From: a virus
Length of the DNA: 52,479 nt
Reading direction: 5' to 3' (one strand)
Virus record (IMG/VR): IMGVR_UViG_3300045988_166053
In this document: positions 27,334 through 46,518 of the stretch, in pieces
How positions within the stretch are numbered: position 1 is the first letter of the stretch
How the letters are laid out: each line of letters starts with the position of its first letter
The notes under the pieces: model-generated
What the model was told of the DNA's origin: nothing
The model's input: the letters and a program-made list of their open reading frames with translations, nothing else
Database searches by the model: none
Translations under genes and position numbers: made by a program

Positions 27334-27633
27334 CTAACCGAACAGGCCATACCTGCTGATATCTTGCAGCAGGAACAAGCCCATGGCGATGCCTTCGATC
27401 ACGATGATCCAGAGGACGAACTTGATGATGATCTTGAGCACGAGCTTCACGACCTCGCCGGCAGTCATGTGCTTGAACCTGACAGACCAAGGTAGCTCAT
27501 CCATCCGCATGGCGTGCTTCGGCGAGATCAGCTCCGGATACTGCTGGTCCATATAGGATTCATAGCCAGCCATGCCAGCATTCTTACGATCGTGATACTG
27601 TGCCAGCTTTGCAGTCTTATCGGTATTGTTCAT
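27334..27633 (-). CDS. Small membrane protein with a C-terminal transmembrane helix.
   Basis: Start at the internal ATG with RBS GGAG. Hydrophobic stretch VVKLVLKIIIKFVLWIIVIEGIAMGLFLL. Confidence 0.45.
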   Translation of the reverse strand: MNNTDKTAKLAQYHDRKNAGMAGYESYMDQQYPELISPKHAMRMDELPWSVRFKHMTAGEVVKLVLKIIIKFVLWIIVIEGIAMGLFLLQDISRYGLFG

Positions 27634-27637
27634 TTGG

Positions 27638-28030
27638 TTATGCTCCAATCTGATTGTTAGGATGTTCAACTGTCCATTCGGAGAACTCGTCGACGAACAT
27701 CTCGGACATTGCTTCTTCCCAGCATTTCATTGACCTCTGCACTTTGCAAAGCGTGGATACAGAGACATCCTCACCGTGCAAGATGCACAGGAATCGAGAC
27801 GTATCGATGACCACGCGACGCACGCCGATCTGCATATCGAGTAAGCGTTGAGCGTAATCAGGGTCGAGAGAGATTTCGATCTTCGATAGCTCATTGAACT
27901 TGTCAGGACGATTGTCCATGATGCACGCAGACTTGAGAGACGCGATGGCACACGTGAAGTCCATCATGATATTGATGTGCGTGATGCCGTCTTCACGGTT
28001 GATGATTCGATTGGCGAACTTGTCTTTCAT
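27638..28030 (-). CDS. Hypothetical early protein.
   Basis: 130-aa ORF. Confidence 0.45.
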   Translation of the reverse strand: MKDKFANRIINREDGITHINIMMDFTCAIASLKSACIMDNRPDKFNELSKIEISLDPDYAQRLLDMQIGVRRVVIDTSRFLCILHGEDVSVSTLCKVQRSMKCWEEAMSEMFVDEFSEWTVEHPNNQIGA

Positions 28031-28251
28031 GATTCACTCCGTTCTTCCGGATTCACCGGATAAAGAAAACAAACGATTTTGTATTTGCACACGCGATGAC
28101 CAATGCACGCCCATTAACAGCTGTACGCCTGCGATCTCGGACAAGCCGCAACCGGCTAGGGCCGGTTGTCCGCACACCGACAGCCATGGGCTGCATCGCG
28201 TGAAAAAAATAACCCTGACGGCCGGATCCGAAGATCCGACCGCCCTGGTTT

Positions 28252-28551
28252 CTAGATGCACAGCTGAGCTAGCTCATTGACGTGCTTCTTGGCATCGTCA
28301 TCCAGATCCGGATAGCTGACGCCATAGATGCCTTTGGCCAGATTAGCGTAGGCTGTTGCCAAGCGTTCTGACTTGTCATCAGGATTAGCCCTGCGATCGT
28401 TCTCGATCTTTTCGGCACGAGCTTGCTCCTTGACGACTTCTGCCATTGCAATGTTGATAGGGTCTTCACGGTCTGCCTTGACCATGAACTTGTAGGCGAT
28501 CATCGCCTGAGGTGACATGTTGTTCAGATCCTCCGGTTTGACGCTGATCAT
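28252..28551 (-). CDS. First gene of the leftward operon; hypothetical.
   Basis: RBS AAAGGAG. An AT-rich putative promoter region lies upstream. Confidence 0.5.
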   Translation of the reverse strand: MISVKPEDLNNMSPQAMIAYKFMVKADREDPINIAMAEVVKEQARAEKIENDRRANPDDKSERLATAYANLAKGIYGVSYPDLDDDAKKHVNELAQLCI

Positions 28552-29470
28552 TTTGATCTCCTTTCGTCAGGATTTATCTTGCGTAATTTACACACTTGAT
28601 TGTTTGGTTGCTTGGTTATTAGGGCTGTTGTCTTATCAGCCACACCAGATAACCAGTTTATCCATCACAAAATACACACATTTACCTAAGAAACCAGGGA
28701 TATAGGGGGTTAGTATATATTAGGATTATTAGGATTTTTTGTTTTCTTTATATCTACCCGCGCTAATTTTTCCAGCTCTCATAAGAACCCTGGATACCAT
28801 GCTCACAGGAAAACCGGACGGACGAACCCTTCCAAGCGGCCAGGGTTTCCCGACTCTCCACGGCCTATCAAGTTTGTCTTATTTATCTTTGTTTATCTGA
28901 TTTCAAATGCTTGTATAGATGGCGGGGGAGGGTAACTGAGATCGGCACCCCACCATTCGCCGCCATCTAACCATACTTGTTGCCCGATCCCCCGTGACCT
29001 CAAAGGGTAACTGCAAATCCGCTGTCGCGGATTCTGCTGCACGTCTTACTGAGATCATCATGGCCAACAGGCATAGCTCCGCCTATGGTACGTAATCCCC
29101 TTATTCAGCTTTTCTAGGCTGCCTTGCTACCACGTCCTCCAAGGAACATAAGGTTAAGGTCTGTCCATGACCGGTATCCGCCCTCCCGTTTTGCCTGCGG
29201 GGAAGGGCTCCCCGTGCGCGCCCGGCGATAAGGCGCGCCTTGAGATCATGGACCTCATCGGCATCCCCACGGCTTAGCCTCGGCTCTCGCTTTATGTCCA
29301 TGCGTACACAGACGGGTTCATTCCGTGGGGAACTTCAATCCTCGGTTATTCAGACTCACTGGCCTCTTTTAAGCCGACCGGGAACGGACGCTATAGTCGC
29401 CATGGAGGAGTTCCGCCTCCAAGTGATGAGTTCATTTTACCATCGCCCTGTCACCGACAATCCGAGTCCT

Positions 29471-29492
29471 ATTATTCTTTTTCGAGAATAAT
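29471..29492. repeat. 22-bp element attattctttttcgagaataat, the left copy of an inverted pair.
   Basis: Its reverse complement equals 29624..29645 apart from one mismatch. The element is also internally palindromic (7-8-7). Confidence 0.8.
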
Positions 29493-29576
29493 GACATTCA
29501 AAGCAGTCGGTGTTATCATTTCTCCTGTGGGGATACGGTCGACCGGGAACTAGACTGCGATCCTTGCAGACACGGT

Positions 29577-29616
29577 GGCCCTCGGAGGAGTTGATCCTTC
29601 GGGGGCCTTTCCTTTG
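29577..29616 (+). terminator. Terminator-like hairpin with a 12-bp stem (ggccctcggagg/ccttcgggggcc) followed by tttccttt, lying inside the inverted-repeat-bounded segment.
   Basis: The stem contains two G-U pairs and is followed by a T-rich tail. Confidence 0.4.
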
Positions 29617-29623
29617 CGTCATG

Positions 29624-29645
29624 ATTATTCTCGAGAAAGAATAAT
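29624..29645. repeat. 22-bp element attattctcgagaaagaataat, the right, inverted copy.
   Basis: Reverse complement of the left copy with one mismatch. The flanking inner sequences are also partly similar. Confidence 0.8.
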
Positions 29646-29958
29646 GCACCCAAGCATCAGAGGTGGTAAGATATCCAAGACGCCCGGATACGGGCACCTA
29701 GATGAGTACGGCGGTCCTTTGCCCTTTTTCCGCTAGCTTGTCCTGGTGACCGATCTGGGCGTCCATCTACATCGGGAGGACTGGATACCATTTAGCAAAC
29801 CCCATTTAGCAACCTTGATGGTGTCAACGAACGTTGCGAACGTCGGAGCAGTTAGCGTCAGTCCTCCCGGCCATTTCGGCGCCTTATCCATTTGAGAAAA
29901 AAAGAATAACGACTTAGACTCTTTGATAGACATGTAGATCGCATTCTAAGGACGACGT

Positions 29959-30618
29959 ATGATAGAGAGCCTTTTGTATCCGAAGAAGCTAACGGAGCCG
30001 CCGCAACTTCTTGTAGATGTAGAGTCGCTGTTTCACAAGGGCGGCAATATGAATACAAGCCTAGTAAGTTTTGTTTACTATTCGTCTAGGAACAAGGCAG
30101 TGAATTATCGACTTATCAGTGTCGGTGAAGATGGCCCGGATACCTTTAGGGTTGGCTTCGTAGCAGACGTAACTGGCATAACTCGTTCAGGCGCTGTGAT
30201 GGCTACCCTAGCGGTACCATTCCAGGACCTAGAAACCGAGATCATGTTGGTCAAGTGTCACGGATGGAGTACGGGGGGGGCCGCCATAATGGGTACGCCA
30301 GATAAGACCGTTGAGAAATCATCGGCATCGATGATAAACCCACCTGAGGTCCTCCCGGCTCCAATGGGTATGCCAGATGGGCATGAATACCTTTTCAAGA
30401 TGAAGGGCTCCGAACTTGAAGGTGGGAAACAGTTCTCATCTTCTGGATCGGGCTACAGCATTTACTTCGACTACATGAACTCCAGGGGTGATATTGGTAC
30501 TGAGTTCCCCGAGATATTTGACCATTATGCTACTGTAGCTCTTGAGGTTATCGTCAAGGTCAAAGTCTACCACTCTAATCTTATGTCTGGATTTCGTCTT
30601 GGTATCGCGCAACTCTAG
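29959..30618 (+). CDS. Hypothetical early protein; intact paralog. It contains a G8 tract at 30273..30280.
   Basis: RBS AAGGA. 219 aa. Homologous across its whole length to the corrected reading of 30641..31295. Confidence 0.55.
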   Translation: MIESLLYPKKLTEPPQLLVDVESLFHKGGNMNTSLVSFVYYSSRNKAVNYRLISVGEDGPDTFRVGFVADVTGITRSGAVMATLAVPFQDLETEIMLVKCHGWSTGGAAIMGTPDKTVEKSSASMINPPEVLPAPMGMPDGHEYLFKMKGSELEGGKQFSSSGSGYSIYFDYMNSRGDIGTEFPEIFDHYATVALEVIVKVKVYHSNLMSGFRLGIAQL

Positions 30619-30640
30619 TTCTCTAAGGATGTGACGACAG

Positions 30641-31295
30641 GTGATAGAGAATCTTTTATGGCCAAAGAAATTAACAGCTCCTCCGCAACTTCTTGTAGAT
30701 GTAGCTGCACTGTTCAGAGGAAAGTTTGGTAATTTCACCATACCTCTAGTCGGTTTTGATGTCTTCTCAGGCACAGAAGTAAACTATCGACTTATTGACG
30801 TCAGCTCGGATGGCTCGAATACCTTCAGGATCGGCTTAATAAATAAGCTAATAAGAAGCAATGGCAGGTCAGTTATGCGCATAGCAATACCGTTCCAGAG
30901 CATTGCAGCCCAGATTGATGAAATCAGGTGCCATGGATGGGACACCCCCCCCCGCCAGCTTATTGAGTACGCCGAGCAAGACTGAAATAAGAAAAAGTTC
31001 GAGCCATATTCAGCCTACGTTAAATCAAATTCGGTTCCGTTTAGATGGGCATAGCTCTCTGTTCAAAATGAAGAGCGACGAGTTTGAAGGTGATGGCTCC
31101 GGGAAACAGTTCCAATCGGCAGGATTGTACAGCGGTCTTGAGTATGGAATTAGCAATAATATCGTCGCTGCCGGACAAGAGTTTACCGAAATGTTCGATA
31201 ACTACTCTGATAAGACGATGGCTCTTGAGGTTATCGTCATGATAAAAGTCTACTCAGGCACTTATCCCTCTGGATTCCAAGTCGGCATCGTGTAG
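30641..31295 (+). pseudogene. Frameshifted paralog of 29959..30618. The frame breaks inside a C9 tract (30945..30953); a C8 tract would give an intact gene of about 218 aa.
   Basis: ORFs 30641..30985 and 30903..31295 both align to the upstream paralog (MIENLLWPKKLTAPPQLLVDV..CHGW / ..LFKMKSDEFEG..ALEVIVMIKVY). The switch between them occurs exactly at the homopolymer. Confidence 0.6.
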
Positions 31296-31411
31296 CCCAA
31301 TTCTCCCTGGCTAGGCTATTGACAGCCTAAAAAGCCGCAGTGCTATCCTAGTCTTCAGAAGGCCCCGGGTCTGCCGAGTCCCCGGGGCCTTCCCTTATAT
31401 CTGGGAGGAAT

Positions 31412-31918
31412 ATGGCGCGTAGCTACGACATAGCCGAGATCATGACGAGTGACGGCGGCCTCAATGAGCAGGTCCGCCGTAAGATCAACCTGAACTTCAG
31501 GCGCGTCGTCGAGATCGCCACGCGCGAGAAATCCGCTTCCGACGGAGCAATGCTGGGAAGCAAGATCCAAGATACAGTTGAATCCTACATCGAGTCGATA
31601 CTCCCTGACCTTATCAAAGAGATCGAGGATAGCTCATTCGATCGCATGTATCCAATAGGATGCGTCATCGTGACACACACGTCGTCGGATCCAAGGTTGA
31701 CTCGCGGCAAGTGGGAAGCTGTCACGTCAGGTAAATACGTTCTCACCGCCGGCTCTGGATATCCAGTCGGATCGACTGGTGGAAGCAATATGATTGAAGC
31801 CGGGAATCTCCCGAATAACGCTAACTCTCTCAGCGTCGATAGTGGCACATCTGAATCTGAGCAGAAGCCATTCATGCCAGAATACATCGCACTTCTTTTT
31901 TACAGGAGGATATCGTAA
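31412..31918 (+). CDS. Hypothetical protein.
   Basis: 168-aa ORF with RBS GGGAGGAA. Confidence 0.45.
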   Translation: MARSYDIAEIMTSDGGLNEQVRRKINLNFRRVVEIATREKSASDGAMLGSKIQDTVESYIESILPDLIKEIEDSSFDRMYPIGCVIVTHTSSDPRLTRGKWEAVTSGKYVLTAGSGYPVGSTGGSNMIEAGNLPNNANSLSVDSGTSESEQKPFMPEYIALLFYRRIS

Positions 31919-34127: not shown

Positions 34128-34169
34128 AGGGCCGCTCCTGTTGACATGCCGGGAGCGGCCCTCCTTTTC
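34128..34169 (+). terminator. Rho-independent terminator after the tRNAs.
   Basis: agggccgctcc...ggagcggccct, a perfect 11-bp stem followed by ccttttc. Confidence 0.6.
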
Positions 34170-34221
34170 ACCTGCTACAATCAATTCTCAGAAGCACATC
34201 CTCGTAAGACGGAGGAACGAT

Positions 34222-37200
34222 ATGGCATTGGACAAATACGCCTTCTCTAAGATCGCCAGGGGCGAGAACCCCACGGCTGGCGCACAGGGAGGCGGCAATA
34301 AGTTCAACGCGAGGGAATACCTCGGTGGTGGCGCTGATTCCGGCATGTCCGAGAACTTCATGTCCATGAGGCAGAAGATCGCCGATGAATCCGACGCCCG
34401 AAGGGCCGCGGCTGAGCCTCCTGCTGGCAGGAAGAAGGCCGATGGACGAGACTATCTAGCCGCCACAATGGGCAAGATCGGCGAGAACATCATGGGTCTC
34501 GCTGGAGCTGAGGAAGCTGCGAAGACCGAGTCGAAGCTCGATGACGTCGGCTCCTTCCTCTTGGGCCTGCCGCTCGGAACCATTTCCGCACCGTTTACCG
34601 GCGCGTCCCAGCTTTACGAAGCGGCCTCTGGCCACAGGGCCACTGAGATGGACGATGCTGGCTATATCCCGAGCCAGGACCTCGATCTCGGACAGAGGCT
34701 TGCCACCGGTGCGTCCGGTGCCATTAACGCAGTCGGCCCGTTCTTCGGCGGCTCTGCTGGCATGTTGAGGGGCGCAAAGAACGCCGCTCTCATGGGAGGC
34801 GCCAAGGCTGCTGGCCTCATGGGTGCCGAAGATGCCGCAAAGAAGATGGCTGGCAGGGCTATTGAGTCCTCCGCAAAGTCTCTTGCCAAAGAAGAGGCGA
34901 AGGGCTGGGTCGGCAGGCTTGCATCCGAGGCCGCAGAGGAAGGCCTCGAAGAGTTTGTCCAGTCGCCGCTCGATGAGATCCGTGACGGCACTCTTGATGA
35001 CGGCTGGTTCAACAGGGCTGTCGAGGCTGGCGCGATGGGCGCTCTCGGCGGCAGCATCATGTCCGGCGCCGGAATGGCTCTCGATAGGACGTTTGGCAAG
35101 ATGGCCAATCCGTCCAACCAGTCCTCAAACAGGATGCCTCCGCTTTCACCTGACACTAAGACTATCAAGGAGCGCAGGGGCTTCAGTACCGATGCGACAT
35201 CCATGGTGTCCGATGCAAAGGACAGCATCAGGGACACACTCGCTGAGCAACAGAAGGTGCCCGGTGCGGCCTCCGCACTCCAGGTATCTTCTGGGTTGCG
35301 CAACCATGGTCTCGATGACGGAACCGTTGGCTCTGGTCTAGTCGAGAAGATCTTCTACTATCCTGATCGCAGGGATATGGAGACCGGCGAGATCCAGAGC
35401 TCCGCAAAGACAATTGCAGACTGGTTCGGTGTCACGACTGATGACATGCACAGGATTCTGTCTGGACCGAACAAGACTGCTGAGCTTAACCAGCTCGTGC
35501 AGAACATGAAGGCCAACGGTCAGTCCACAAGGCTGCTCGTCGGTCGAAACCCTGATACCAACAGGGGCCTCTATTGGATTGACGTGGACGAGATCGTCGA
35601 TTCCGACTACATCGATCTGAACCCGTTGACGTATTCCTACGTGAAGTCCGATATCGATGGCGATAAGGCGCAGCTCTACTTCGACCGTAACAACCAGGCA
35701 TCTCTCGGCTATGTATCCGAGAACATCGTTGCTCCCGAGGCCATGGACCAGAAGACGGGCCAGCCCGCCTCGAACGTCGATATCTCCGACTACGGATTCA
35801 TGCCTGCGACCATCGGTGATAAGAGCACGGCTCAGCTGACCAAGGATGACGTCAGGCGCATCTTCACTGAGGCTATCGATGAGACCGTCGGTACAAACTC
35901 CGGCATTGATGCCGTCTCCTATGCCGACAGGTGGGCCGATGAAGTCGCCTCCAGCAAGGATTCCAATAAGGCGAACTTCCTCAATGAGATCAACGCCGCC
36001 ATCAAGAACTATCTCGCCAACGGTGGTCAGCTGCTCCCCGGTGCGCACCCTGGCACCGCTGTATCGAAGATCATCGGTAAGATGCAGGCAGACACTTCCG
36101 CCGGCTTCTCTCGTGCCATGGATGCAGCTGCGGCCGATGTCAGGCGTGCAAATGAGATCGTCAGGCAAATGGTCGACATGATCCCTGGAGTCCTGGCTGA
36201 GTCCAATGAGGGTCGAGGTATGTCGTCCAAGGGCGACCTTGGTGGCATTCGATCTTATGCTGAGGCTGCCACCGACATGCTGAACGCCGCGTATGCGAAA
36301 TACAACAAGGCTGCAACGAACGTCGGCTTCCGCCAGGACGGCAGGTTTATCCTGGAGGCCCAGTCCAAGCTGCTTCAGTCGATCGACTATACGCTCCGCA
36401 ACCTCCAGACCGCCATGTCCAAGTCGGGTTTGGGCGTATCTGAATCTGTGTATCAGATGCTCGTTGACATCTGCGTGAGGCAGGTTGAGCGCGGAGGCGA
36501 CGTCACCACGACGATCTCCGGCCTGTTTGACGCAGCTCTCGCGAATGGCTCGATGACTCGCTTCAGGAATGAAGTCGGGCACACGAAGATCCAGAATGGC
36601 GAAGACCTCGAAGTCCTCAAGCGCGTGTTCAGGGATGAGTACGCAAAGCTGTACGATGCATACGAGAAGGCAATCCTCACCGACAACACGGCCAACGAGA
36701 ATGGCATGAAGCTGCCCGGTGAGATGGATAAGCCTGAGCTTCTCGAGTCTGACGGCGATGCTGCTCTCGCAAGGTACTTCAAGCGTGCCTTTGGGTCTCA
36801 GTACGGCGAGGACATGGTCGAAGGCTGGCCGAAGCACTTCGAGGGCAAGACCTGGAACGAAGCTGTGAGGATCGTCTCCCAGGATGCAAGCTATGACAGG
36901 ACGCAGTTCGTCGATCTCGATAATGGATTCCAGCAGCTTTTCAACATGATGCTGGCTGACGAGGGCAGGCAGTCTAGGCAGGTATCCATAAGGATCAACA
37001 GCGAAGTCGAAGCATCCGTACGTATGTTCGCTGATCTCCGTTCTAAGTGGGAAGCCAATGGCAAGAAGCTCCACGGAGCCGATTTCGCCATGGCAGAACA
37101 GCTTGTCACAAAGGTAAGGAGCATCATCGGCCAGAGGTCCGCCGATAAGATTGGCCTGGTCTCCGTCGATTCGTTCTTCGATTCTGGCTGGGGTGAGATG

Positions 37201-40200
37201 CTGTCCTCTGGAAACCAGGAGCTCGCCATGAAGGCCATCTGCGAGATGGCAGTAAGCGCGAAGTATGACGGCGTCATCGCAAAGCTGGATCAGGCTCTAA
37301 AAGAGAAAGACGGCCTTGTGGCCGACAAATACAGGATGGCCGCGCTGAACATGCTTGGCGATCTTGTTGATACATCCAGGGTCGATGACTACATCATCTC
37401 CGAGATAGCAGACGCCGCAAGCAGCATGGATGCCCTGAAGAATGCGGAGACGTTCTCCAGGCTCTATGACGCCATAACGAGTGATGATCCGCGCCTGACG
37501 TTCGGTGTGATCTCGAGCACCTGGGATGCAGGTAACGGAGATAACGCAAGCGTGTTCCTGACCGACGTGCTTACGACGCCCGGCTCCACGTTCTCCAATG
37601 CAGATCTTTCGAGCAGGATGAACAGGGCCGCCTCGAGCCAGCGTACCGCTGACCAAATCAACAACGAGATGAACATCGAGAGGTGGAACGCTGTATTCAG
37701 CGCGGCCACTGATGCCGGACAGCAGGAGCGCTATGCCAGCGCGATAGACGACTTGCTCAATGACCGCACCTATGAGGTCGGCAATGATGCGATCGGATCC
37801 GCAGTCTACGCTGCAACCACGATCGCAAACTCCTACAAGGAAAAGGGTGTCGTCCCGAGGTCCGCTCAGATCATGTACGCCATCTCCGAGATCTCCAGGC
37901 ACGGAGCCCTATACGCATGGTCCGATAAGCTGTTCGGTCTCTCGCAGGGCAGGATCACCAAGAGGCAGTTCCTCGATAACCCCACGCTTATCGCGAGGCT
38001 CATGGTCGATCCGAAGTTCTCGATCACCATTACCGACTGGGAAAGCGGTCAGTTCAACAACTTCAGCCGTGACGATCTGATCAGGGATGTCATCCCCGAT
38101 TGGAACGGTGGCCCGATCACCCTTAATGTCTACAACAAGATATTCACCAAGTATCCCCAGCTCATCTCCATCATCGCCCCGCTGTCGATGTCGGTCGGCG
38201 TGAACGAGAACTCTGAGTCCACTGTCACCAAGACAACGACAGACTCCGTAGACAAGGCACTCCTCAACCGTGTCAGGGAAGTCATGGACATCAACGAGGA
38301 TGCCGATAACATCACCAAACATGGGTCTGAGGCTAGGAAGCGCGTGATGCGCAGGACCAAGCTGTTGCTCATGGATCACGTCGAGTTCATTCCTGAACTC
38401 TGCCGAATGATGGGTGATGTCGACGGAAGGCTCACGCTGAGCGAAGCGACCAAGAGGTCGAGCAAGCTCGTCGATGATATGTGCAACTACTTCATCGATC
38501 TCGCGATGTCCGGCGAGGGGACCAAGTATGTCGACATGCTTGCAGAGTCTTCTGCCGATACATTCAACTCCGTCATGGGGACAATCAGTGAATCCTTCCG
38601 CGCTGCGATGGAGATAGCTTCGCTCGAAGGCGAGGTGCTCGATAGGGCCGATGACAGGAGCCTGTCCAGTCGAGATGCGCATATCAAGCACATGTCTGAG
38701 AGCATCGTGAGCAGCACGATAAACAAGTTTGCTGCTGATAATACGGCCGGTCTCACGTCACTTTTCAACAAGGCGTCAAAGAAGTTCTTCGACGAGATGA
38801 ACGGCGTCGACCAAAGGTTCGATGAATACATGCACGACCTCGACGAGCTCGAGACGATCATGAGCACCGTATTCGACCTGTATGTCGACAACAGCACCAC
38901 CAGGGCACAGATAGTCGACGAGATCAATCAGGGCCTGGATACCCAGCTCAAGATGATCGATGACAACCTGCTTGTCGATACCGAGGGCAAGACCGAAGCT
39001 CAGATCAAGGCCGAGGCAGACAACGTCCGAGAAGCGATCAAGAATGAGCTGACCGTCGATAATATCGACAGCCAGGTCACCGCGATAGCCAACAGCTTGC
39101 CGACGGCCGGCGGCATACTGAATCCTGATGACAAGCTCACCGGGTTCATCACGATAGACGACTTTGGCAATGGCACCGACGGCGCAAGGAACCTCGTCAA
39201 AGAGAAGATCTCCGAGATCTCCAGGAGCTCGAACTTCAACCTTGGAGACGGAGAGCTGTCCGTCGATGAGACCATGGATAAGATCGATGCCATCTGCGAC
39301 GAGATCGTGAAGAACGACGGAGTGCTCAACGAGGAGATCAAGAACAAAATCAAGACAGCAATGTCTTTCTGGAACTCCGTCGCTATGCGCGATTGGATGA
39401 TGGACAAGAACCTTCGAAGCGGCACCATCCAAAACGTCAACATCTTCAACGCTGTGGACAGGCACAACCAGTTCGTCCTCGACATGCGCGATGCCATCAG
39501 GTCTGACATGATTGATAGGGGAGTCGATCCGAACCTCGTCGACCTGACCGGCGAGAGGCCGCACTACCCGCATCAGGACTTCTCTGATCCCACGCTCGAC
39601 CTCATGGCGAACAGGGCGATTGTGAACTCCACGAGGGGCGGCGCCTCTACCAACGTCGGACTCAACGGTGCAAAGACTCGCGCGTATGCCGGATTCGACT
39701 TCATCCCGAGGGACTACCGCTCGCCGGTTGCTCCTATCGAGCTTGATTATAACGGGCTGATGGACCTCGTTAAGCAGGATGGAAGCTCTACTGGATCTGC
39801 CGGATATAACAGGTTCATCGGTGCAAAGACGTGCATCGGTGGTCCGTGGACCCAGAGCCCTGATCAAAATGGCCAGTGGGGCTGGGAACTTGGCACGTTC
39901 ACCGAGCGAGATCTCAGTGACATGCAGGCTGATCCGACCAAGAAGGTTCTCATCTTCGACCCGATCATGTCTCCCAACGGTATCGATATCAACTGCACGC
40001 ATGACGCATACAATGCCAACGGCTGCGATTTCCAGATGACCTTGGCCATGGTTGGACGACTCCTCGATGGTACGCAGGAGGGCATGGCGCTCAAAACCGC
40101 CAAGACGATCGGCAACGTGAATCACATGTCCCAGGACGAGCTGAAGATCGACGGACTTGATTACGGTTCCAACTCTACTGATATGTCCGCGCTCAATAGG

Positions 40201-43200
40201 TACAAGGCCGGGTCGCCGGATTGGGATAAGGCTCTGGTCGTCCTCAGGAACAAGGCCCGTGAAAACCTTATCGGCTACCGAGATAAATGGCGCAAGAACC
40301 TCAACGCGATATTCTCCGATGACGCCAACAAGGTGCTCGGCATGGGTGATGCTGAGGCTCTGCATTTCTCGCAGCTGATCACGCCGTTCGTCGAGGTCGA
40401 GGTTGAAACTATCGATGCTTCCGGTGAGGTCGTCGGCACGAGGACTGAACTCATCGACTCCATCGATCTGTTTGCCACGAATGATATAAGCGGGTTCAGA
40501 CAGGCCGTTGCCTCCATGACGACTGATGAGTCGAGGGTCTCCAGGATCATTCCGGTCGCTGTGAATCCTGAGGAGATCTCGATGAAGATCCAGCGGGAAG
40601 TAGCGGCAGCCATCCGTCAGGGCGGCAAGAAGAATAGGCAGAGGATAGCCCTCGATGCAGCTACGCATTGGCGAGGCAGCTACTCCAAGACGCTAAGCGT
40701 CGGCGATGTCCTTGCCGACTTCTCGCCGGTCAAGCCGTCCTCTTTCGAGTTTGCCATCGGAGATGACCGCACCTCTCCGCTCGGAAAGTTCCTGGATGAG
40801 CTCTATGGATCCAAGGCGCTGGAGATCCCTGGAAGCTCTCGCTCCAGGATGGACTACGCTGCTATTCCTAATGGGACGATCAACGCGGCATATTCGGCCA
40901 TGAAGGGTGCTACGACGCTCGGACTGAGCCCTCGAAAGTTCGAAGTCGATAACAGCTTGTCGTATGCCACGAGCGGCCGCCTGTCGGTGAATGGTATGCC
41001 ATTGCCGGTGAAGGCATTCTGCAAGGATAGGGACAAGCTGGGCTCCGGCGTCTCTGGAATCGACTCCGTGTCCAAGCTGTTCGAGCCGCTCAAGGATACA
41101 AAGGAAAACCAGTGCCAGCCTCCCAAGGCCGGAAATAACCCGGAGACTGCCGGCATTGTTTTCTCCGATGCTGAGTTCCTATCGGCGCTTACCTGGGCGA
41201 TGAAGTACCAGCAGCTCCTCTATGTCCCCGAGAAGTATGTGAGCCCTGGCCTTGTATCCCCGTATCCTATCGTCGGAGATCCGGTGCTAATCGGAGGCGA
41301 GAAGTTCAACATCATCGCCCCGTATAAAAATGACGCCCTCAGGCGTGCCAGCTTGAGGCGTGGCAAAGCTGCCGTCATGGACTTTGATCCGGCCAACGTG
41401 GCCGTCAGTGTCGCCGGCGGATTCACGGTGACCATGGGCGATGGTGCGAGCTATGTAAACTCTGAGACCATCGGCAGGCGCGGCCTCACGTTGCAGAACA
41501 ACCACAAGAAGATGGACGTTCTCAGCGACCTGCTCTCTGATGGCAAGGGATCGAACAGGAACGTCAAGAGTTACTCGCTCTGCACGATTCGGGATATGGC
41601 CGAGCTTGCATCGCTGACTGACGAGAACCTTGAGAAGAGCATGGTGTTCGGACGTCAGTATTCCAAGACTTCCGGCTCTGACATTGACCAGACGAAGGCC
41701 ATGATCGATATTCGTGATGCCGTGAACTATATGGCAAACAACGGTGTCAGCAAGCGTGACTCTGCATCGAGGGGAGACGTTCTCGCCTTTGCAAAGATTG
41801 AGTACCTCGATGGATCTGTCTCCTATGCACCGATTACACTCGGAACCGGAGCGCCGTCGAAGATGCTCAAGATCAACGTCACGCAGGACGGCAGCGCCAT
41901 CAAGATCGACTTCGACGCTATTGTGTCCATCAAGGACGAGAGCGATAGGGAGTTCGCGCTGAAGTACGCGATCCACTCGAAGAGCTACAAGACTATGGCC
42001 ACTGTGCTCGACAAGTTCAAGATGCCCATGCTTGGCGTCAGGTACACGGATACACAGGGCAAGACCGTAGATGCTCTTAGGGCTGACATCATCTACAACA
42101 GCACCACCGATGAGAACCGAAACAGCGATGCCTGGCTTAACATCATGAAGTCGAACCTCATGTACTGGGTACACGCTAAGTCCGGCGGAAGTCTGCTGTA
42201 CAAGAGGGTCAACGGCGGAAACTACGAAGTGAACCCCTGGCTCGAAAAGTGCGGCCTGTCTCCGCTTGAGATCAAGTCGCTTCTCGAGGGAACCGATATC
42301 CGCGTGTGGAGGAAGATCGTCAATCAGAAGATCAACCTCGTTGATCCTGCTACCGTTCCGACTGACTCCACGGTGAACGATGTCATCAGGCACGTCATCG
42401 CGAACAACATCAGGGATGGCATTCCCAACACGTATTTCTTCTCCGCTATAACCAAGGAGTCCCTTGGCGGCAAGACTCCCAAGCTGCGCGGAAAGATGTT
42501 CAGCTTCTCCTCGATTGACCAGCTCAACAGGAAGCAAACTCTCGAGCTGTTCAATGCCATGGATGACAAGTGCTGCCCTCCGGGACTCGTACATAAGTTC
42601 GATGAAAACGGTAAGCTGGCCGATAAGAAGTCGGTCATCTCCACCACGTTCGACGAGTACGGCAGGATGATGCAGTACATCGGAAAGGGTGATAACGGCA
42701 AGCCTGTATACATGGCCGTCGATGTGTCCGTTGGAGATGCCATGACGCTCGGCGTCGGAACCACGATGGACCGCGTGTCCGCCTCCGCTGCTTACAGCCT
42801 CCAGCACTCCGAGAGGCAGGGCTTGTCCAGGGCGCTGACTGAGCGCGAGCTCGATGCTGTCACCAAGGACACCATGCTGCAAATCGGAGACTACGGTGCA
42901 TTCAATGACCAAAGCCTTCGTGGCGATGGATCCACGATGGCTCGCGAGGGCATCGGCGCCTCTGCATATCAGTCCGACATCGCCGCGTATGTGGAAGCCG
43001 CAGACCGTGGTTCCAAGCCAATCATGGCCAGGGATCTCCATGAGTTCGAGGCTAGGAAACGCATCGCAGAGAGCAGCAAGATGTTCACTGAGAGGCTGCC
43101 TATCGTCCTGGCTGATGATAGAAAGTTCTTTGGAGCTGTGGACAGCATGGCCACCGTCAAGGAGAACGACCCTGATTACGCGAGGAAGCAGTCCTTGCAC

Positions 43201-46200
43201 GACAGCTACACCATGGTCAGGGATGCTCTTGGCATGGGCGACGGAGGCAAATGGCTGACATGGGACCGCTTCATGATGCTCGTCAAGCGTGATTGCGGAA
43301 TCACCTATAACGACGGCAAGGGAACGTTCCAGATCACCGTTGATCAGATCCACGAGTCCGCCCTGCGCATCAAGAGGAACATCGAGAAGACCGGCCTACC
43401 GATTGTCGCCGCTAACAACAACGATGGCTATTCAAGCAGGTACTCGCTGCCGATGCTACTGCCGTCCGAGAAGTCCTACTTCTGGCAGTTCGAGAACATC
43501 CGCAACGAGAACGGCGGAGATTTCTCGAAGTTCGAGGAGAACATTCTCGCTGAAGGCGACAGGGCTATCGAGCTCATCACGAGGATCCCGGCTACCCAAA
43601 AGAGTGCCGGCCGTGGTGAGAGCGTTGTATCCAAGAAGAAAAGGAACGCGCTTCTCGCAGCGTGTGACTGGATGTACACGGAGAACGGATACGCAACCAA
43701 GTCCGGAAGGATCTATGGCGATACCTATTCCTCTGACATGATCAGGGATTCCAATGCCTTCTTCGAGGCCCTGTTCGACAATGAGTCTCAGCAGGAATGG
43801 AAAGAGCTCCTCATGGAGACGACCGATGAGGTCGCCCAGAAGCTCAAGGACTACAGGTCTCTGTACAACGCTAAGTACACGATCACCACGCTCGATGACT
43901 CCGGAAGGACCATCGTCAAGGTCAAGGCGAACGATCAAGCTACGATAGACAAGATCCTTAACTTTGCGACTACGACGTCGCAGATGATGGGCGTCATGTC
44001 TCCGTCTGTGCTGTTTGCCAACTATGCAGACAAGGCGCTGTCCACCAATGCCATGAAGCTGGCCATGAAGATCGGCAGGGATTACGGTATCGGATCCTAT
44101 GCGACCGATGTCGACGTGAACCAGGATCTCGTCAAGCAGTTCTCGCGTGACCCGCTCGTGCTGCGATTCTGGAATGCCATGCGCGATGCCGCCATTGACG
44201 GAGACGAACAACTGTTCTTGGCTACCGTGAACGACGAAGCTGATCTCACCACCTGGATCGAGACCCGAGGCAATCGCAGGAACAAGATCTCTGACATGGT
44301 GTTCAGGGGCATCAACGGAGGCAATTCCTTCGCCAGTGTCCAGATCGAGAACTTCATGAACTACTTCCTCACGCTCGAAGCAAAGGATGGTCACAACTAC
44401 TGGTTCCAGCCTGTCAACGATTCGAACGGCCCGACGGAGATGCGCATCGAGCAGATCATGGCGAGCGACAATGCGTTCAGGCTGTTCGTTGACATCTTCG
44501 GAGGCGGCGTCTCCTTCTCGCTTGATAACGCGATGGTCGCCCAGAACAACGCGCTTAGGGGCGACATGGCGCAAAGGTCTGTCCCCTCGATGCTCTACAA
44601 TGACTTCGTCAGGCAGCATGGCTCCGCCGCAAAGTTCTTCTCGACCACGTTCGTCTCCAGGTTCATGCAGGCCCGCATCAACCAGGGCAGCAGGATGCTC
44701 AACTGGGTTCTCCCTATGTCCACGCTTCACCATGCGACCATTGAGTTCCTGACCTCTGAGGGCATGGCTGATACCAAGATTGGCCAGAGGGCTCAGCTCC
44801 TGCACATCGAGGACGCCAGGACATTTAAGAACTTCAAGATGGCCCTGGCGAGCGATGCTCTCCATATGGCGCCGGCTGTCCTCGCCGCAGTTCTTATGGC
44901 TATCCCCGGTGCCATCGAGCCTCCTGAGGACGATGACAAATGGGGCAACCCGACGGACTGGCTGTTCTTTGGCCACAGGGTCTATCCTGACTGGGAGCTT
45001 GAGTCGATCATGGGCATGGCGCTCCCGGCGGCCGCCTTCTGGAAGTCTTGCGCCCTTGGCAGGCCTAGGGTCGACCTGCTGACCAATGGCGCAGCCTCCG
45101 TGTTCTACAACAACCCGATGGCCAGGATGTCTGACCTTCTCGCCATGATCACCGGCGATCCTGAGTCCTCGATCCTCTCTGATTACGAGAGGGACGTTGA
45201 GACCTATGCCGACGCTAAGAACGGATCTCCGGACCTGTCTCGCTGGCTCATGGGTCAGTTCCAGGGTTCCATGCTCACATGGGCCGGCCAGTTCTGGTGC
45301 CCGCAGATCTTCAAGGAGCTGTTCTCGACGAGCCTCGAGCATAGCTACAACAAGGTTTATGAGGAGACCTCGACTGGCGCTCTGACAGAGGCCGGAGCCA
45401 ACGGCAAGACCATGAAGACGACCTACGAGGATGCCATGCTTCGCAAGGTCGCCAGGAGGAACCCGGTTACCGCAACGCTGCTCGACATCACTCTCCGCCC
45501 GAACACCGGGTACCTGGAGAGCGAGATGCCTCTCGTCGTCATTCCTGATCAGGCACAGATGGATTCCCAGAAATACTGGAGCCTCTACGACGATGCGGGC
45601 AACCCGCTTCCTGAGTCGGTCAGGCAGGAGAAGATCATCGAGATCATCTCCCTCATGCAACAGACCGATGACATGGAGGATCTGTACAAGGCTGGCTTCT
45701 ATCTCGATTCGAAGACCAGGTTCGATGTCGGTGACACGATCTGGCAGATCTGCTCGAACCTCACGGATGCCTATTACGAGATGGAAGCCAATGGCGACCT
45801 GAATCCGTATGTCCTTGGTGGTGGCGATTACTACAAGGGCAAGGCACTGGCTACCCAGATCTCCAATGCCTACTATGACGAGCTCGATTATTGGAAGTCC
45901 TTCTACTACGACAAGCTGGAAAGCGAGCCGATGCGTAGGGGCATGGTCATGTACAACAGGTACAAGACCACCTATGCACAGGACGACAATGGCGATGTCT
46001 ACGCCACCGGCATCATGGCAGACACCTCTGGCCTGAAGTCTCTGTCCCCGGTTAAGATCGCTCCCGACTCCTTGACGGAGAAGACGATCACGATGGGCTA
46101 TGAGGGTGACTTCATGACTCCGTCCGCTGTTACCGGTGAGAGCACCGGCATGAGGGCACTCATCCCCGTCGAACAGGGCTATGAGAACGTGATTCCCTTT

Positions 46201-46518
46201 GAGTCTCATGACCCGGAGAATCAGTCTGGATCCGGTGATGACAACGGTAACGGCAGCGGGAACAACAAGTCCAAGTCCAACGGCAATGGTTCCAAGTCCT
46301 ATGGCAGCAGGTCTTATGGCTACCGCAAGGGCGGCGGCGGTGGCGGTGGCGGCCGTGGTGGTTCCGCACCGAACTTGTATTCCAGGCTTCCCAAGGCATA
46401 TAACCCATCACCGAAGACCATGTACGGCGAGAGGCTGTATGATACGAAGTACGACTACCTGCGGCCCGGCTTCGAGACGAAGGGCAGCCGCGAGGCCTAC
46501 AAGAGGAGCGACATCTAA
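34222..46518 (+). CDS. Giant virion-associated protein (4,098 aa). It has an Ala/Gly-zipper N-terminal region, a DIDGD motif and a Gly/Ser/Asn-rich basic C-terminus. Putative multidomain internal or ejection protein, possibly carrying an RNAP-like double-psi beta-barrel.
   Basis: A single uninterrupted ORF with RBS GGAGG 8 nt upstream of ATG 34222. Its stop overlaps the portal-like start (TAATG). GC3-rich codon usage matches the capsid genes. Confidence 0.7.
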   Translation: MALDKYAFSKIARGENPTAGAQGGGNKFNAREYLGGGADSGMSENFMSMRQKIADESDARRAAAEPPAGRKKADGRDYLAATMGKIGENIMGLAGAEEAAKTESKLDDVGSFLLGLPLGTISAPFTGASQLYEAASGHRATEMDDAGYIPSQDLDLGQRLATGASGAINAVGPFFGGSAGMLRGAKNAALMGGAKAAGLMGAEDAAKKMAGRAIESSAKSLAKEEAKGWVGRLASEAAEEGLEEFVQSPLDEIRDGTLDDGWFNRAVEAGAMGALGGSIMSGAGMALDRTFGKMANPSNQSSNRMPPLSPDTKTIKERRGFSTDATSMVSDAKDSIRDTLAEQQKVPGAASALQVSSGLRNHGLDDGTVGSGLVEKIFYYPDRRDMETGEIQSSAKTIADWFGVTTDDMHRILSGPNKTAELNQLVQNMKANGQSTRLLVGRNPDTNRGLYWIDVDEIVDSDYIDLNPLTYSYVKSDIDGDKAQLYFDRNNQASLGYVSENIVAPEAMDQKTGQPASNVDISDYGFMPATIGDKSTAQLTKDDVRRIFTEAIDETVGTNSGIDAVSYADRWADEVASSKDSNKANFLNEINAAIKNYLANGGQLLPGAHPGTAVSKIIGKMQADTSAGFSRAMDAAAADVRRANEIVRQMVDMIPGVLAESNEGRGMSSKGDLGGIRSYAEAATDMLNAAYAKYNKAATNVGFRQDGRFILEAQSKLLQSIDYTLRNLQTAMSKSGLGVSESVYQMLVDICVRQVERGGDVTTTISGLFDAALANGSMTRFRNEVGHTKIQNGEDLEVLKRVFRDEYAKLYDAYEKAILTDNTANENGMKLPGEMDKPELLESDGDAALARYFKRAFGSQYGEDMVEGWPKHFEGKTWNEAVRIVSQDASYDRTQFVDLDNGFQQLFNMMLADEGRQSRQVSIRINSEVEASVRMFADLRSKWEANGKKLHGADFAMAEQLVTKVRSIIGQRSADKIGLVSVDSFFDSGWGEMLSSGNQELAMKAICEMAVSAKYDGVIAKLDQALKEKDGLVADKYRMAALNMLGDLVDTSRVDDYIISEIADAASSMDALKNAETFSRLYDAITSDDPRLTFGVISSTWDAGNGDNASVFLTDVLTTPGSTFSNADLSSRMNRAASSQRTADQINNEMNIERWNAVFSAATDAGQQERYASAIDDLLNDRTYEVGNDAIGSAVYAATTIANSYKEKGVVPRSAQIMYAISEISRHGALYAWSDKLFGLSQGRITKRQFLDNPTLIARLMVDPKFSITITDWESGQFNNFSRDDLIRDVIPDWNGGPITLNVYNKIFTKYPQLISIIAPLSMSVGVNENSESTVTKTTTDSVDKALLNRVREVMDINEDADNITKHGSEARKRVMRRTKLLLMDHVEFIPELCRMMGDVDGRLTLSEATKRSSKLVDDMCNYFIDLAMSGEGTKYVDMLAESSADTFNSVMGTISESFRAAMEIASLEGEVLDRADDRSLSSRDAHIKHMSESIVSSTINKFAADNTAGLTSLFNKASKKFFDEMNGVDQRFDEYMHDLDELETIMSTVFDLYVDNSTTRAQIVDEINQGLDTQLKMIDDNLLVDTEGKTEAQIKAEADNVREAIKNELTVDNIDSQVTAIANSLPTAGGILNPDDKLTGFITIDDFGNGTDGARNLVKEKISEISRSSNFNLGDGELSVDETMDKIDAICDEIVKNDGVLNEEIKNKIKTAMSFWNSVAMRDWMMDKNLRSGTIQNVNIFNAVDRHNQFVLDMRDAIRSDMIDRGVDPNLVDLTGERPHYPHQDFSDPTLDLMANRAIVNSTRGGASTNVGLNGAKTRAYAGFDFIPRDYRSPVAPIELDYNGLMDLVKQDGSSTGSAGYNRFIGAKTCIGGPWTQSPDQNGQWGWELGTFTERDLSDMQADPTKKVLIFDPIMSPNGIDINCTHDAYNANGCDFQMTLAMVGRLLDGTQEGMALKTAKTIGNVNHMSQDELKIDGLDYGSNSTDMSALNRYKAGSPDWDKALVVLRNKARENLIGYRDKWRKNLNAIFSDDANKVLGMGDAEALHFSQLITPFVEVEVETIDASGEVVGTRTELIDSIDLFATNDISGFRQAVASMTTDESRVSRIIPVAVNPEEISMKIQREVAAAIRQGGKKNRQRIALDAATHWRGSYSKTLSVGDVLADFSPVKPSSFEFAIGDDRTSPLGKFLDELYGSKALEIPGSSRSRMDYAAIPNGTINAAYSAMKGATTLGLSPRKFEVDNSLSYATSGRLSVNGMPLPVKAFCKDRDKLGSGVSGIDSVSKLFEPLKDTKENQCQPPKAGNNPETAGIVFSDAEFLSALTWAMKYQQLLYVPEKYVSPGLVSPYPIVGDPVLIGGEKFNIIAPYKNDALRRASLRRGKAAVMDFDPANVAVSVAGGFTVTMGDGASYVNSETIGRRGLTLQNNHKKMDVLSDLLSDGKGSNRNVKSYSLCTIRDMAELASLTDENLEKSMVFGRQYSKTSGSDIDQTKAMIDIRDAVNYMANNGVSKRDSASRGDVLAFAKIEYLDGSVSYAPITLGTGAPSKMLKINVTQDGSAIKIDFDAIVSIKDESDREFALKYAIHSKSYKTMATVLDKFKMPMLGVRYTDTQGKTVDALRADIIYNSTTDENRNSDAWLNIMKSNLMYWVHAKSGGSLLYKRVNGGNYEVNPWLEKCGLSPLEIKSLLEGTDIRVWRKIVNQKINLVDPATVPTDSTVNDVIRHVIANNIRDGIPNTYFFSAITKESLGGKTPKLRGKMFSFSSIDQLNRKQTLELFNAMDDKCCPPGLVHKFDENGKLADKKSVISTTFDEYGRMMQYIGKGDNGKPVYMAVDVSVGDAMTLGVGTTMDRVSASAAYSLQHSERQGLSRALTERELDAVTKDTMLQIGDYGAFNDQSLRGDGSTMAREGIGASAYQSDIAAYVEAADRGSKPIMARDLHEFEARKRIAESSKMFTERLPIVLADDRKFFGAVDSMATVKENDPDYARKQSLHDSYTMVRDALGMGDGGKWLTWDRFMMLVKRDCGITYNDGKGTFQITVDQIHESALRIKRNIEKTGLPIVAANNNDGYSSRYSLPMLLPSEKSYFWQFENIRNENGGDFSKFEENILAEGDRAIELITRIPATQKSAGRGESVVSKKKRNALLAACDWMYTENGYATKSGRIYGDTYSSDMIRDSNAFFEALFDNESQQEWKELLMETTDEVAQKLKDYRSLYNAKYTITTLDDSGRTIVKVKANDQATIDKILNFATTTSQMMGVMSPSVLFANYADKALSTNAMKLAMKIGRDYGIGSYATDVDVNQDLVKQFSRDPLVLRFWNAMRDAAIDGDEQLFLATVNDEADLTTWIETRGNRRNKISDMVFRGINGGNSFASVQIENFMNYFLTLEAKDGHNYWFQPVNDSNGPTEMRIEQIMASDNAFRLFVDIFGGGVSFSLDNAMVAQNNALRGDMAQRSVPSMLYNDFVRQHGSAAKFFSTTFVSRFMQARINQGSRMLNWVLPMSTLHHATIEFLTSEGMADTKIGQRAQLLHIEDARTFKNFKMALASDALHMAPAVLAAVLMAIPGAIEPPEDDDKWGNPTDWLFFGHRVYPDWELESIMGMALPAAAFWKSCALGRPRVDLLTNGAASVFYNNPMARMSDLLAMITGDPESSILSDYERDVETYADAKNGSPDLSRWLMGQFQGSMLTWAGQFWCPQIFKELFSTSLEHSYNKVYEETSTGALTEAGANGKTMKTTYEDAMLRKVARRNPVTATLLDITLRPNTGYLESEMPLVVIPDQAQMDSQKYWSLYDDAGNPLPESVRQEKIIEIISLMQQTDDMEDLYKAGFYLDSKTRFDVGDTIWQICSNLTDAYYEMEANGDLNPYVLGGGDYYKGKALATQISNAYYDELDYWKSFYYDKLESEPMRRGMVMYNRYKTTYAQDDNGDVYATGIMADTSGLKSLSPVKIAPDSLTEKTITMGYEGDFMTPSAVTGESTGMRALIPVEQGYENVIPFESHDPENQSGSGDDNGNGSGNNKSKSNGNGSKSYGSRSYGYRKGGGGGGGGRGGSAPNLYSRLPKAYNPSPKTMYGERLYDTKYDYLRPGFETKGSREAYKRSDI

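Follow-up and report, generated by a model that had tools for sequence, protein, structure and literature searches.

The DNA analysed here is a stretch of 52,479 nucleotides (IMG/VR record IMGVR_UViG_3300045988_166053; hereafter the window) that is essentially the whole genome, of about 52.5 kb, of an uncultured phage; contigs of 51–53 kb are common among its relatives, and the source samples appear, going by sample labels alone, to be human-gut metagenomes. The window carries two tandem paralogous genes, which we refer to as gene 1 and gene 2, and each has a homopolymeric tract at the same codon, a run of eight G (G8) in gene 1 and a run of nine C (C9) in gene 2. Coordinates of the genes, the tracts and the features around them are given in Table 1.

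Two tandem paralogues with homopolymers at one codon

Gene 1 is intact, but the first reading frame of gene 2 ends after 114 amino acids (aa) at a stop at position 30985, and the paralogue is completed in the +1 frame, which ends at 31295. Deletion of one C from C9 gives a 217-aa open reading frame (ORF) that can be aligned with gene 1 along its full length (46% identity, blastp E = 9e-59), and an intact 217-aa gene 2 protein (P0079, 99% identity) is present in other samples. The duplication includes the 5' module, where the ribosome-binding site (RBS) and the first 80 bases recur with a spacing of 682 bases (direct repeat D1, 29951–30032 and 30633–30714, 77% identity). The original prediction, which was made from the window alone, had described the coordinates of both genes and tracts, the duplicated RBS, the break of frame inside C9, the end-to-end paralogy and the restoration of the protein by C8, and all of these proved correct.

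Both tracts lie two codons after the CHGW codons and in the same aligned 12-mer (ACG GGG GGG GCC in gene 1 and, with C8, ACC CCC CCC GCC in gene 2). They are the only homopolymers of at least 8 bases in the 52,479-base window, for which a first-order Markov model puts the expected number of such runs at about 0.5 for G and 0.4 for C, and a second run would fall by chance within a codon of the position equivalent to that of the first with a probability of order 1e-4. Because the only two such runs are both at homologous codons, we do not attribute their placement to chance. A comparison of 30272–30283 with 30944–30955 shows that reverse-complementing the inner 9 bases of the 12-mer in gene 1 (A CGGGGGGGG CC) yields the 12-mer of gene 2 as it reads with C8 (A CCCCCCCCG CC), a relationship that may be a coincidence or the product of a small template-switch inversion. 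An inversion between the G and C runs, acting as mutual inverted repeats, was considered and rejected, as all of the relatives are colinear.

Each change in tract length that is not a multiple of three truncates the product within 4–12 codons. Gene 1 thus encodes 219 aa with G8 but 109, 115 or 110 aa with G7, G9 or G10, and gene 2 encodes 217 aa with C8 but 114 aa with C9; the truncated proteins end in GGPP (G7 and G10), GGGRHNGYAR (G9) or PPRQLIEYAEQD (C9). The stop codon of the G7/G10 frame overlaps an in-frame ATG (Table 1), and gene callers report a 109- or 110-aa ORF followed by a 109-aa ORF for gene 1 in genomes with these lengths (L006, L009–L011 and L013). We treat this overlap as coincidental because the AAIMG residues are conserved in orthologues that have no tract.

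A sigma-70-like promoter match is located upstream of gene 1, although such matches are no more frequent in the region than expected from shuffled sequence and are weak evidence for a promoter. The segment downstream of gene 2 (31296–31411) folds at −49.8 kcal/mol (z = −3.8), and the hairpin that it contains, which was not reported by a terminator scan, suggests that the gene pair may be its own transcription unit.

Table 1. Features of the gene pair and its neighbourhood (window coordinates)
Feature	Coordinates	Strand	Description
Sigma-70-like promoter match	29892–29920	+	TTGAGA-17-TAGACT; consensus match only, upstream of gene 1
Gene 1 RBS	29947–29952	+	TAAGGA, within duplicated 5' module
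Gene 1	29959–30618	+	ATG start, 219 aa; intact, ON in window
CHGW codons of gene 1	30256–30267	+	Near-invariant motif just upstream of tract
G8 tract of gene 1	30273–30280	+	In frame
TAATG	30287–30291	+	Stop TAA of the G7/G10 frame overlaps in-frame ATG of Met111
Gene 2 RBS	30624–30629	+	TAAGGA, duplicate of gene 1 RBS
Gene 2	30641–31295	+	GTG start; frameshifted (OFF) in window
C9 tract of gene 2	30945–30953	+	Out of frame
Hairpin	31357–31392	+	G+C-rich, 12 bp, after gene 2; terminator-like, weak U tract
Tail-like gene	31412–31918		168 aa, just downstream of gene 2; weak Gp10_C / phrog_6465 match
Lysis cassette			After tail-like gene: XhlA-like protein, 81-aa putative holin, 33-aa ORF, GH25-CW_7-LysM endolysin
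4125-aa ORF	34141–46518	+	Directly 3' of lysis cassette; no Pfam hit; about 4098–4100 aa called in relatives

Tract lengths vary among near-identical genomes

Regions from related phages were retrieved by exact-protein look-ups and the tracts were read from the DNA of the contigs; all tract lengths are contig consensus values, and genes were scored as ON or OFF from the DNA alone rather than from database gene calls. Tract lengths differ heritably between near-identical phages, and they do so far more often than anything else changes. The near-identical contigs form five haplotypes, distinguished by single-nucleotide polymorphisms (SNPs), with five different tract genotypes (Table 2), and gene 1, not gene 2, is the broken copy in three of them. 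Haplotypes C and A are 99.89% identical over about 4.5 kb, and the differences consist of two SNPs and the lengths of both tracts; no other coding indels were found among the near-identical genomes in the 4–5.5 kb compared. The only further indel, at 28923, is noncoding and is again in a G run, with G6 in haplotype B and G5 in the window (GGCGGGGGAGG).

Table 2. Tract genotypes of the near-identical haplotypes
Haplotype	Tracts (gene 1/gene 2)	Gene 1	Gene 2	Assemblies
A	G8/C9	ON	OFF	Window, ERZ27272107, SRR3992977, SAMN05414893
B	G7/C8	OFF	ON	ERZ1744021 (coverage 184), SRR3993010, SAMN05414896
E	G9/C8	OFF	ON	ERZ27272123, ERZ1743997 (coverage 30)
C	G10/C8	OFF	ON	SAMN05414898, SRR3993032, ERZ27272112
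F	G8/C8	ON	ON	ERZ1744010 = L024 (coverage 6.8)

A sequencing or assembly artefact, in which homopolymers are miscalled and all genomes are truly G8 and C8, had been named at the outset as the dull alternative. Runs of 8–11 G or C are indeed error-prone on some Illumina chemistries, the data are all short-read metagenome assemblies, and coverage of L024 is 6.8x. However, the sequence context of the tracts is identical in all haplotypes, and systematic homopolymer error therefore cannot account for four lengths. Moreover, tract length is concordant within SNP haplotypes in 13/13 assemblies derived from four pipelines (megahit, SPAdes at coverage 184 and 30, Logan, and curated scaffolds), and C9 is seen again in a second lineage, which comes from another study. 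We therefore reject this alternative as scarcely credible, and on the concordance of the assemblies C9 is a real allele and not an error. The original prediction had also placed the switching in the second copy; gene 2 does vary, between C8 and C9, but it is not alone in this, and gene 1 varies too.

Distribution and history of the tracts

Perfect tracts are confined to the closest lineages, those with about 88% aa identity or more. A second lineage, from another study and with about 89–91% aa identity, has both C8 and C9: L037 is G8/C8 with both genes intact, and L032 is G8/C9. In sister lineages the 12-mers are those of the tracts with one interrupting base: gene 2 reads ACGCCCCCC in L028, L029 and L031, gene 1 reads ACGGCGGGGGCC in L028 and L029 and has an unbroken G8 in L031, and both genes are intact in all three. 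The gene 2 tract in related genomes is found either as C8, in frame, or in the interrupted form CGCCCCCC. L004 and L005 have G8 in gene 1 together with a different, tract-free allele of gene 2, and more distant homologues have no run at the tract site. Judged by this distribution, the tracts are of recent origin, being limited to close lineages and found in interrupted form in the sisters, and the notion that two homopolymers are kept at the site holds for the closest lineages but not for the sisters or for distant members of the family.

The same distribution bears on programmed recoding, in which the frameshifted C9 gene would be the functional wild type, read either by +1 ribosomal frameshifting on CCC-CCC-C or by way of transcriptional slippage. 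Runs of proline codons (CCC-C) are known +1-slippery sites, slippage of RNA polymerase is possible at runs of 9 or more bases, and the downstream frame of gene 2 is open to its normal stop. Conservation of the out-of-frame state would be expected, but it is not observed: the closest relatives have C8, the sisters have an in-frame interrupted C6, and distant homologues lack the tract. Gene 1 likewise occurs with three out-of-frame lengths in two frames, and L032, one of the C9 genomes, has in addition a nonsense codon upstream of the tract. Programmed frameshifting, which had been put forward alongside slipped-strand switching, is thus highly improbable.

Scored over 10 lineages, five are ON/ON (gene 1/gene 2), two are ON/OFF, three are OFF/ON, and none is OFF/OFF. 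The six lineages with two perfect tracts comprise two ON/OFF, three OFF/ON, one ON/ON (at low coverage) and no OFF/OFF, and L037, likewise scored as having perfect tracts, adds a seventh lineage that is ON/ON. The idea that the two copies are mutually exclusive was considered and rejected: it does not reach significance at n = 10, and two ON/ON genomes, L024 and L037, contradict it.

Two relatives, L027 and L021, are single-copy. The sole gene of L027 (2501–3154 in logan SRR26919797) is gene-2-like (85% aa identity) with a gene-1-like 5' end (MIESLL), a structure that fits deletion of gene 1 via unequal crossing-over between the duplicated RBS/5' modules. In L025 (logan ERR11029215), which belongs to a more distant branch of the family, G11 (886–896) is found elsewhere in the gene, in a Gly-rich stretch around residue 152 (EFAGGGG), and the frame is broken at that point; although the length of this run is uncertain, since it is taken from a single short-read assembly, it suggests that tracts may arise repeatedly in this protein family. 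We also note that, in several contigs whose DNA has an intact 217-aa gene 2, public gene calls give no more than its C-terminal 75 aa (88 aa in L031); these mis-called intact genes (cf. 31068–31295 of the window) have a GTG start in L010 and L017 and an ATG start in L028 and L031. Because the short calls sit on intact 217-aa ORFs, database protein lengths over-report broken copies.

Selection and recombination at the gene pair

Nonsynonymous (dN) and synonymous (dS) divergence was calculated from Nei-Gojobori counts, using the same genomes for the gene pair and its flanks. Gene 2 of the window differs from that of L031 by 32.5 nonsynonymous and 2.5 synonymous changes (dN 0.067, dS 0.018, dN/dS 3.7; binomial P = 0.01 against neutrality), the comparison with L028 gives a dN/dS of 3.8 (P = 0.008), and L031 and L028, in which gene 2 is intact, differ by 13 nonsynonymous changes and 1 synonymous change. 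For gene 1, dN/dS is 0.7–1.8. In contrast, five flanking genes (those for the 168-aa tail-like protein, the XhlA-like protein, the holin, the endolysin and an upstream 130-aa protein) have dN of 0.000–0.012, dS of 0.05–0.27 and dN/dS of 0.02–0.2 (gene 2 vs flanks, Fisher P = 2e-17). These ratios indicate that both proteins are under diversifying or relaxed, and not purifying, selection.

The substitutions in gene 2 involve all bases and all codon positions and are clustered at codons 76, 124–129 and 164–169. Codon 76 (30866–30868) is AGG, CGT, ATG, AGC or AAC (R, R, M, S or N) in otherwise nearly identical genomes, and together with the other two clusters it is a candidate ligand-contact site. 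Mutagenesis by a diversity-generating retroelement (DGR) was considered and rejected, as the substitutions are not adenine-specific and affect all four bases and all codon positions. No DGR template repeat was found in 27900–31400, where only the paralogues themselves repeat, and no genome-wide search for a reverse transcriptase was made.

Synonymous divergence of gene 2 is about 10-fold lower than that of the flanks, which together with the mosaic haplotypes points to recombinational exchange of the gene pair as a cassette between lineages. The low G+C content of 29800–31300 (0.43–0.50, vs 0.54 for the genome and 0.57–0.62 for the endolysin) would also fit such an exchange.

The protein family and its predicted structure

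A homologue search with gene 1 returned 78 homologues, mostly of 210–240 aa, and the family comprises more than 120 distinct full-length homologues of 210–240 aa with identities down to 35%, all of them unannotated and from metagenomic phage contigs. An exhaustive profile search of 1.84 billion representatives matched 29 clusters, all of stand-alone proteins of 36–257 aa, and no domain fusion that would hint at function was seen among these matches. Searches of Pfam, PHROGs and NCBIfam with both proteins identified no family, and neither a profile search against PDB sequences nor a BFVD fold search gave a match.

The model that AlphaFold2 produced from an alignment of 83 sequences is confident and all-beta (predicted local distance difference test (pLDDT) 90.7, predicted template modelling score (pTM) 0.86), with a fold that weakly resembles the beta-sandwiches of carbohydrate-binding modules (CBMs) and adhesins (CBM3 and Gram-positive adhesin types were compared). 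C100, H101 and G102 are nearly invariant in the family, and conservation is densest in residues 1–20 (M1, E3, L5, L6, P8, K10 and P14–D20), which in the model lie outside the globular fold (pLDDT 54–80) and may represent a conserved docking peptide. The tract falls in a freely varying loop after C-H-G, which reads STGGAA, STAGAA, SKAGAA, DTPPAS or DTTNAN, among others.

The neighbourhood of the gene pair

The gene pair leads a rightward block that runs on into the tail-like gene and then the lysis cassette, with the 4125-aa ORF and structural genes coming next (Table 1). The original prediction had termed the pair early genes, which is a label and not something seen in the sequence. The 81-aa putative holin is unannotated and was assigned by its place in the cassette. 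Because the endolysin has a GH25-CW_7-LysM architecture, the host is probably Gram-positive, and the XhlA-like gene is consistent with this. The tail-like gene has two alleles, of 168 aa and 196 aa, in relatives with identical XhlA-like proteins (L022, L025, L026, L032 and L037), and is a further variable element in this neighbourhood.

Between the leftward gene block and gene 1 there is a gap of about 1.9 kb (28031–29958) that has no ORF of at least 100 aa. It contains a 22-nucleotide inverted repeat (29471–29492 and 29624–29645; 95% complementary, 131 nucleotides apart) and a 13-bp terminator-like hairpin (29577–29607), and it is 92–95% identical, with many small gaps, in relatives for which dS of the coding flanks is about 0.2. 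An Rfam scan of 27500–31500 identified no RNA family. This gap may be an origin or a regulatory region.

Megablast and tblastn searches of 50,697 phage records gave no match, scans of IMG/VR by protein and by DNA pattern found no relative, a scan of JGI metagenomes found one distant locus only (L008), and a scan of GTDB genomes found no prophage copy and hence gave no host assignment.

Discussion

The two tracts have the properties of a contingency locus, in that the repeats are inside ORFs, their lengths change the reading frame, and their length polymorphism exceeds other mutations. We conclude that they are probably real hypermutable ON/OFF tracts. This interpretation, first offered from the window alone, is upheld by the occurrence of G7, G8, G9 and G10 and of C8 and C9 among near-identical genomes, the lengths varying between haplotypes and agreeing across assemblers within each. 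Slipped-strand mispairing during phage DNA replication would add or remove a G or C, which would shift the frame two codons past CHGW and end the protein within 4–12 codons; a phage population would then hold variants expressing protein 1 only (G8/C9), protein 2 only (G7, G9 or G10 with C8), or both (G8/C8). We infer that the tract changes are frequent and reversible within a lineage, and the resulting ON/OFF variation would be useful as bet-hedging.

Several observations weigh against this interpretation. Every assembly of a haplotype has the same fixed tract genotype, and these are consensus sequences only; the assemblies within a haplotype may share read sets, and the numbering of samples and runs suggests that as many as four pipelines re-assembled a single cohort. 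L024, which is G8/C8, is at only 6.8x coverage, with the 5' end of gene 1 cut off by the contig end, and the lack of double-OFF genomes is not significant at n = 10 (about 0.7 expected). Gene 2 of L032 has the nonsense codon Q16* in addition to C9, which looks like decay rather than switching, and a dN/dS of about 1 for gene 1 is equally expected from relaxed constraint.

Some of these points would also be accounted for by a mutational hot spot coupled with decay of a redundant or dispensable gene pair, in which no adaptive switching takes place and the homopolymers appeared by chance in a surface loop that tolerates them. For a weakly selected copy, a frameshift in the tract would be the commonest route to death. 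The independent nonsense codon of L032, the gene 1 dN/dS, the fixed tract genotype within each haplotype, the variation in copy number (L027 and L021 being single-copy) and a G+C content below that of the genome are all consistent with decay. However, the gene 2 dN/dS of 3.7 is significantly greater than 1, which is not simple neutrality, and the downstream frames are intact in all OFF alleles except that of L032. Gene 1 is OFF through G7, G9 and G10, and gene 2 is then always C8 and in frame; the two genomes with gene 2 OFF both have an in-frame G8 in gene 1, and a double-OFF genome was not found among the 10 lineages. In addition, two perfect tracts arose at one codon in both paralogues, and the family stays full-length across deep divergence. 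We consider decay an unlikely explanation and favour hypermutable switching.

Similar systems are known in other phages and in bacteria. Fletcherviruses of Campylobacter have hypermutable polyG tracts, described in PMC10579305 as giving 'phase variable RBP expression' (RBP, receptor-binding protein; Sorensen et al. 2021, Cell Rep 35:109214, also cited in PMC10877375). The Fletchervirus system resembles the one described here in having G/C tracts in phage coding genes, ON/OFF states set by tract length, phage subpopulations, and more than one tract gene per phage. The likeness is in mechanism only, since the window proteins are unrelated, with no megablast or tblastn match in the 50,697 phage records and no PHROG; furthermore, the host of the window phage is probably Gram-positive, a tandem pair of paralogues shares the tract codon, with G in one and C in the other on the coding strand, and the locus is known by comparative evidence only. 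In T2 and T4, simple-sequence repeats in ORFs of all functional classes undergo reversible +/-1 frameshifts by polymerase slippage, interpreted as bet-hedging (Gomez, Barrick & Waters, bioRxiv 10.1101/2025.10.21.683753). Those repeats are poly-A runs of 6–9 bases in AT-rich coliphages, and were studied through read-level mutant frequencies and reversion assays (bioRxiv 10.1101/2025.10.21.683753), whereas here the tracts are G8–10 and C8–9 in a gut phage of 54% G+C, and the differences are fixed between natural strains.

Among bacteria, homopolymeric tracts form contingency loci in surface genes of Neisseria, Haemophilus, Campylobacter and Bordetella (PMC2831843, PMC1891110). Common features are a G/C homopolymer within an ORF, ON/OFF switching by frameshift, paralogues that switch independently of one another, rapid evolution of the products, and stabilised alleles in which the tract is interrupted; the difference is that the replicon here is viral, and switching would act over burst progeny and not over a cell lineage. 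Phages also diversify their host range by other means, including DGRs (Bordetella phage BPP-1) and invertible tail-fibre segments (Gin and Cin of Mu and P1). The outcome is the same, with alternative versions of a host-interaction protein in one phage population, but at this locus the substitutions are not adenine-specific and there is no template repeat near the genes, in contrast to DGRs, and the relatives are colinear without inversion, in contrast to Gin/Cin systems.

We infer that the two proteins are interchangeable host-interaction modules. The role that we prefer, although tentatively and at somewhat short of even odds, is that of virion-attached proteins with a carbohydrate-binding-like beta-sandwich, docked through the N-terminal 20-residue peptide. 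We favour this because the N-terminal peptide is conserved and the body variable, because the predicted beta-sandwich is of the CBM/adhesin type, and because the tail-like gene is adjacent and copy number and alleles vary. A second, less likely role is that the proteins are intracellular and either counter host defence or are sensed by it, a suggestion prompted by the moron-like layout of the locus, with a promoter-like site, a strong hairpin after gene 2 and low G+C. It is also conceivable, although improbable, that the complementary G and C tracts constitute a coupled two-gene toggle which, through selection or a strand-specific bias in slippage, ensures exactly one host-recognition module per virion lineage. 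If so, it would set host range in a Gram-positive gut phage and be the phage counterpart of surface antigens that are expressed in a mutually exclusive manner.

Although this type of system is already known, the protein family, its occurrence in a probable Gram-positive gut phage, the pairing of G and C tracts in tandem paralogues and the natural-population record are new. To our knowledge, experimental proof of homopolymer phase variation in phages comes so far only from Campylobacter phages and T-even coliphages (the latter in a 2025 preprint). The present locus extends the same behaviour to wild human-gut phages, in which near-identical strains from different samples have different ON/OFF combinations of fast-evolving paralogues, and it offers a clean natural test case with public reads. 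It also carries a practical warning: in assemblies of viral metagenomes, genes that appear frameshifted at a run of G or C may represent real alleles and ought to be neither discarded nor corrected automatically. For the family itself, hypermutable switches and a dN/dS of at least 1 are independent signals that flag these orphan proteins as probable determinants of the interaction between phage and host.

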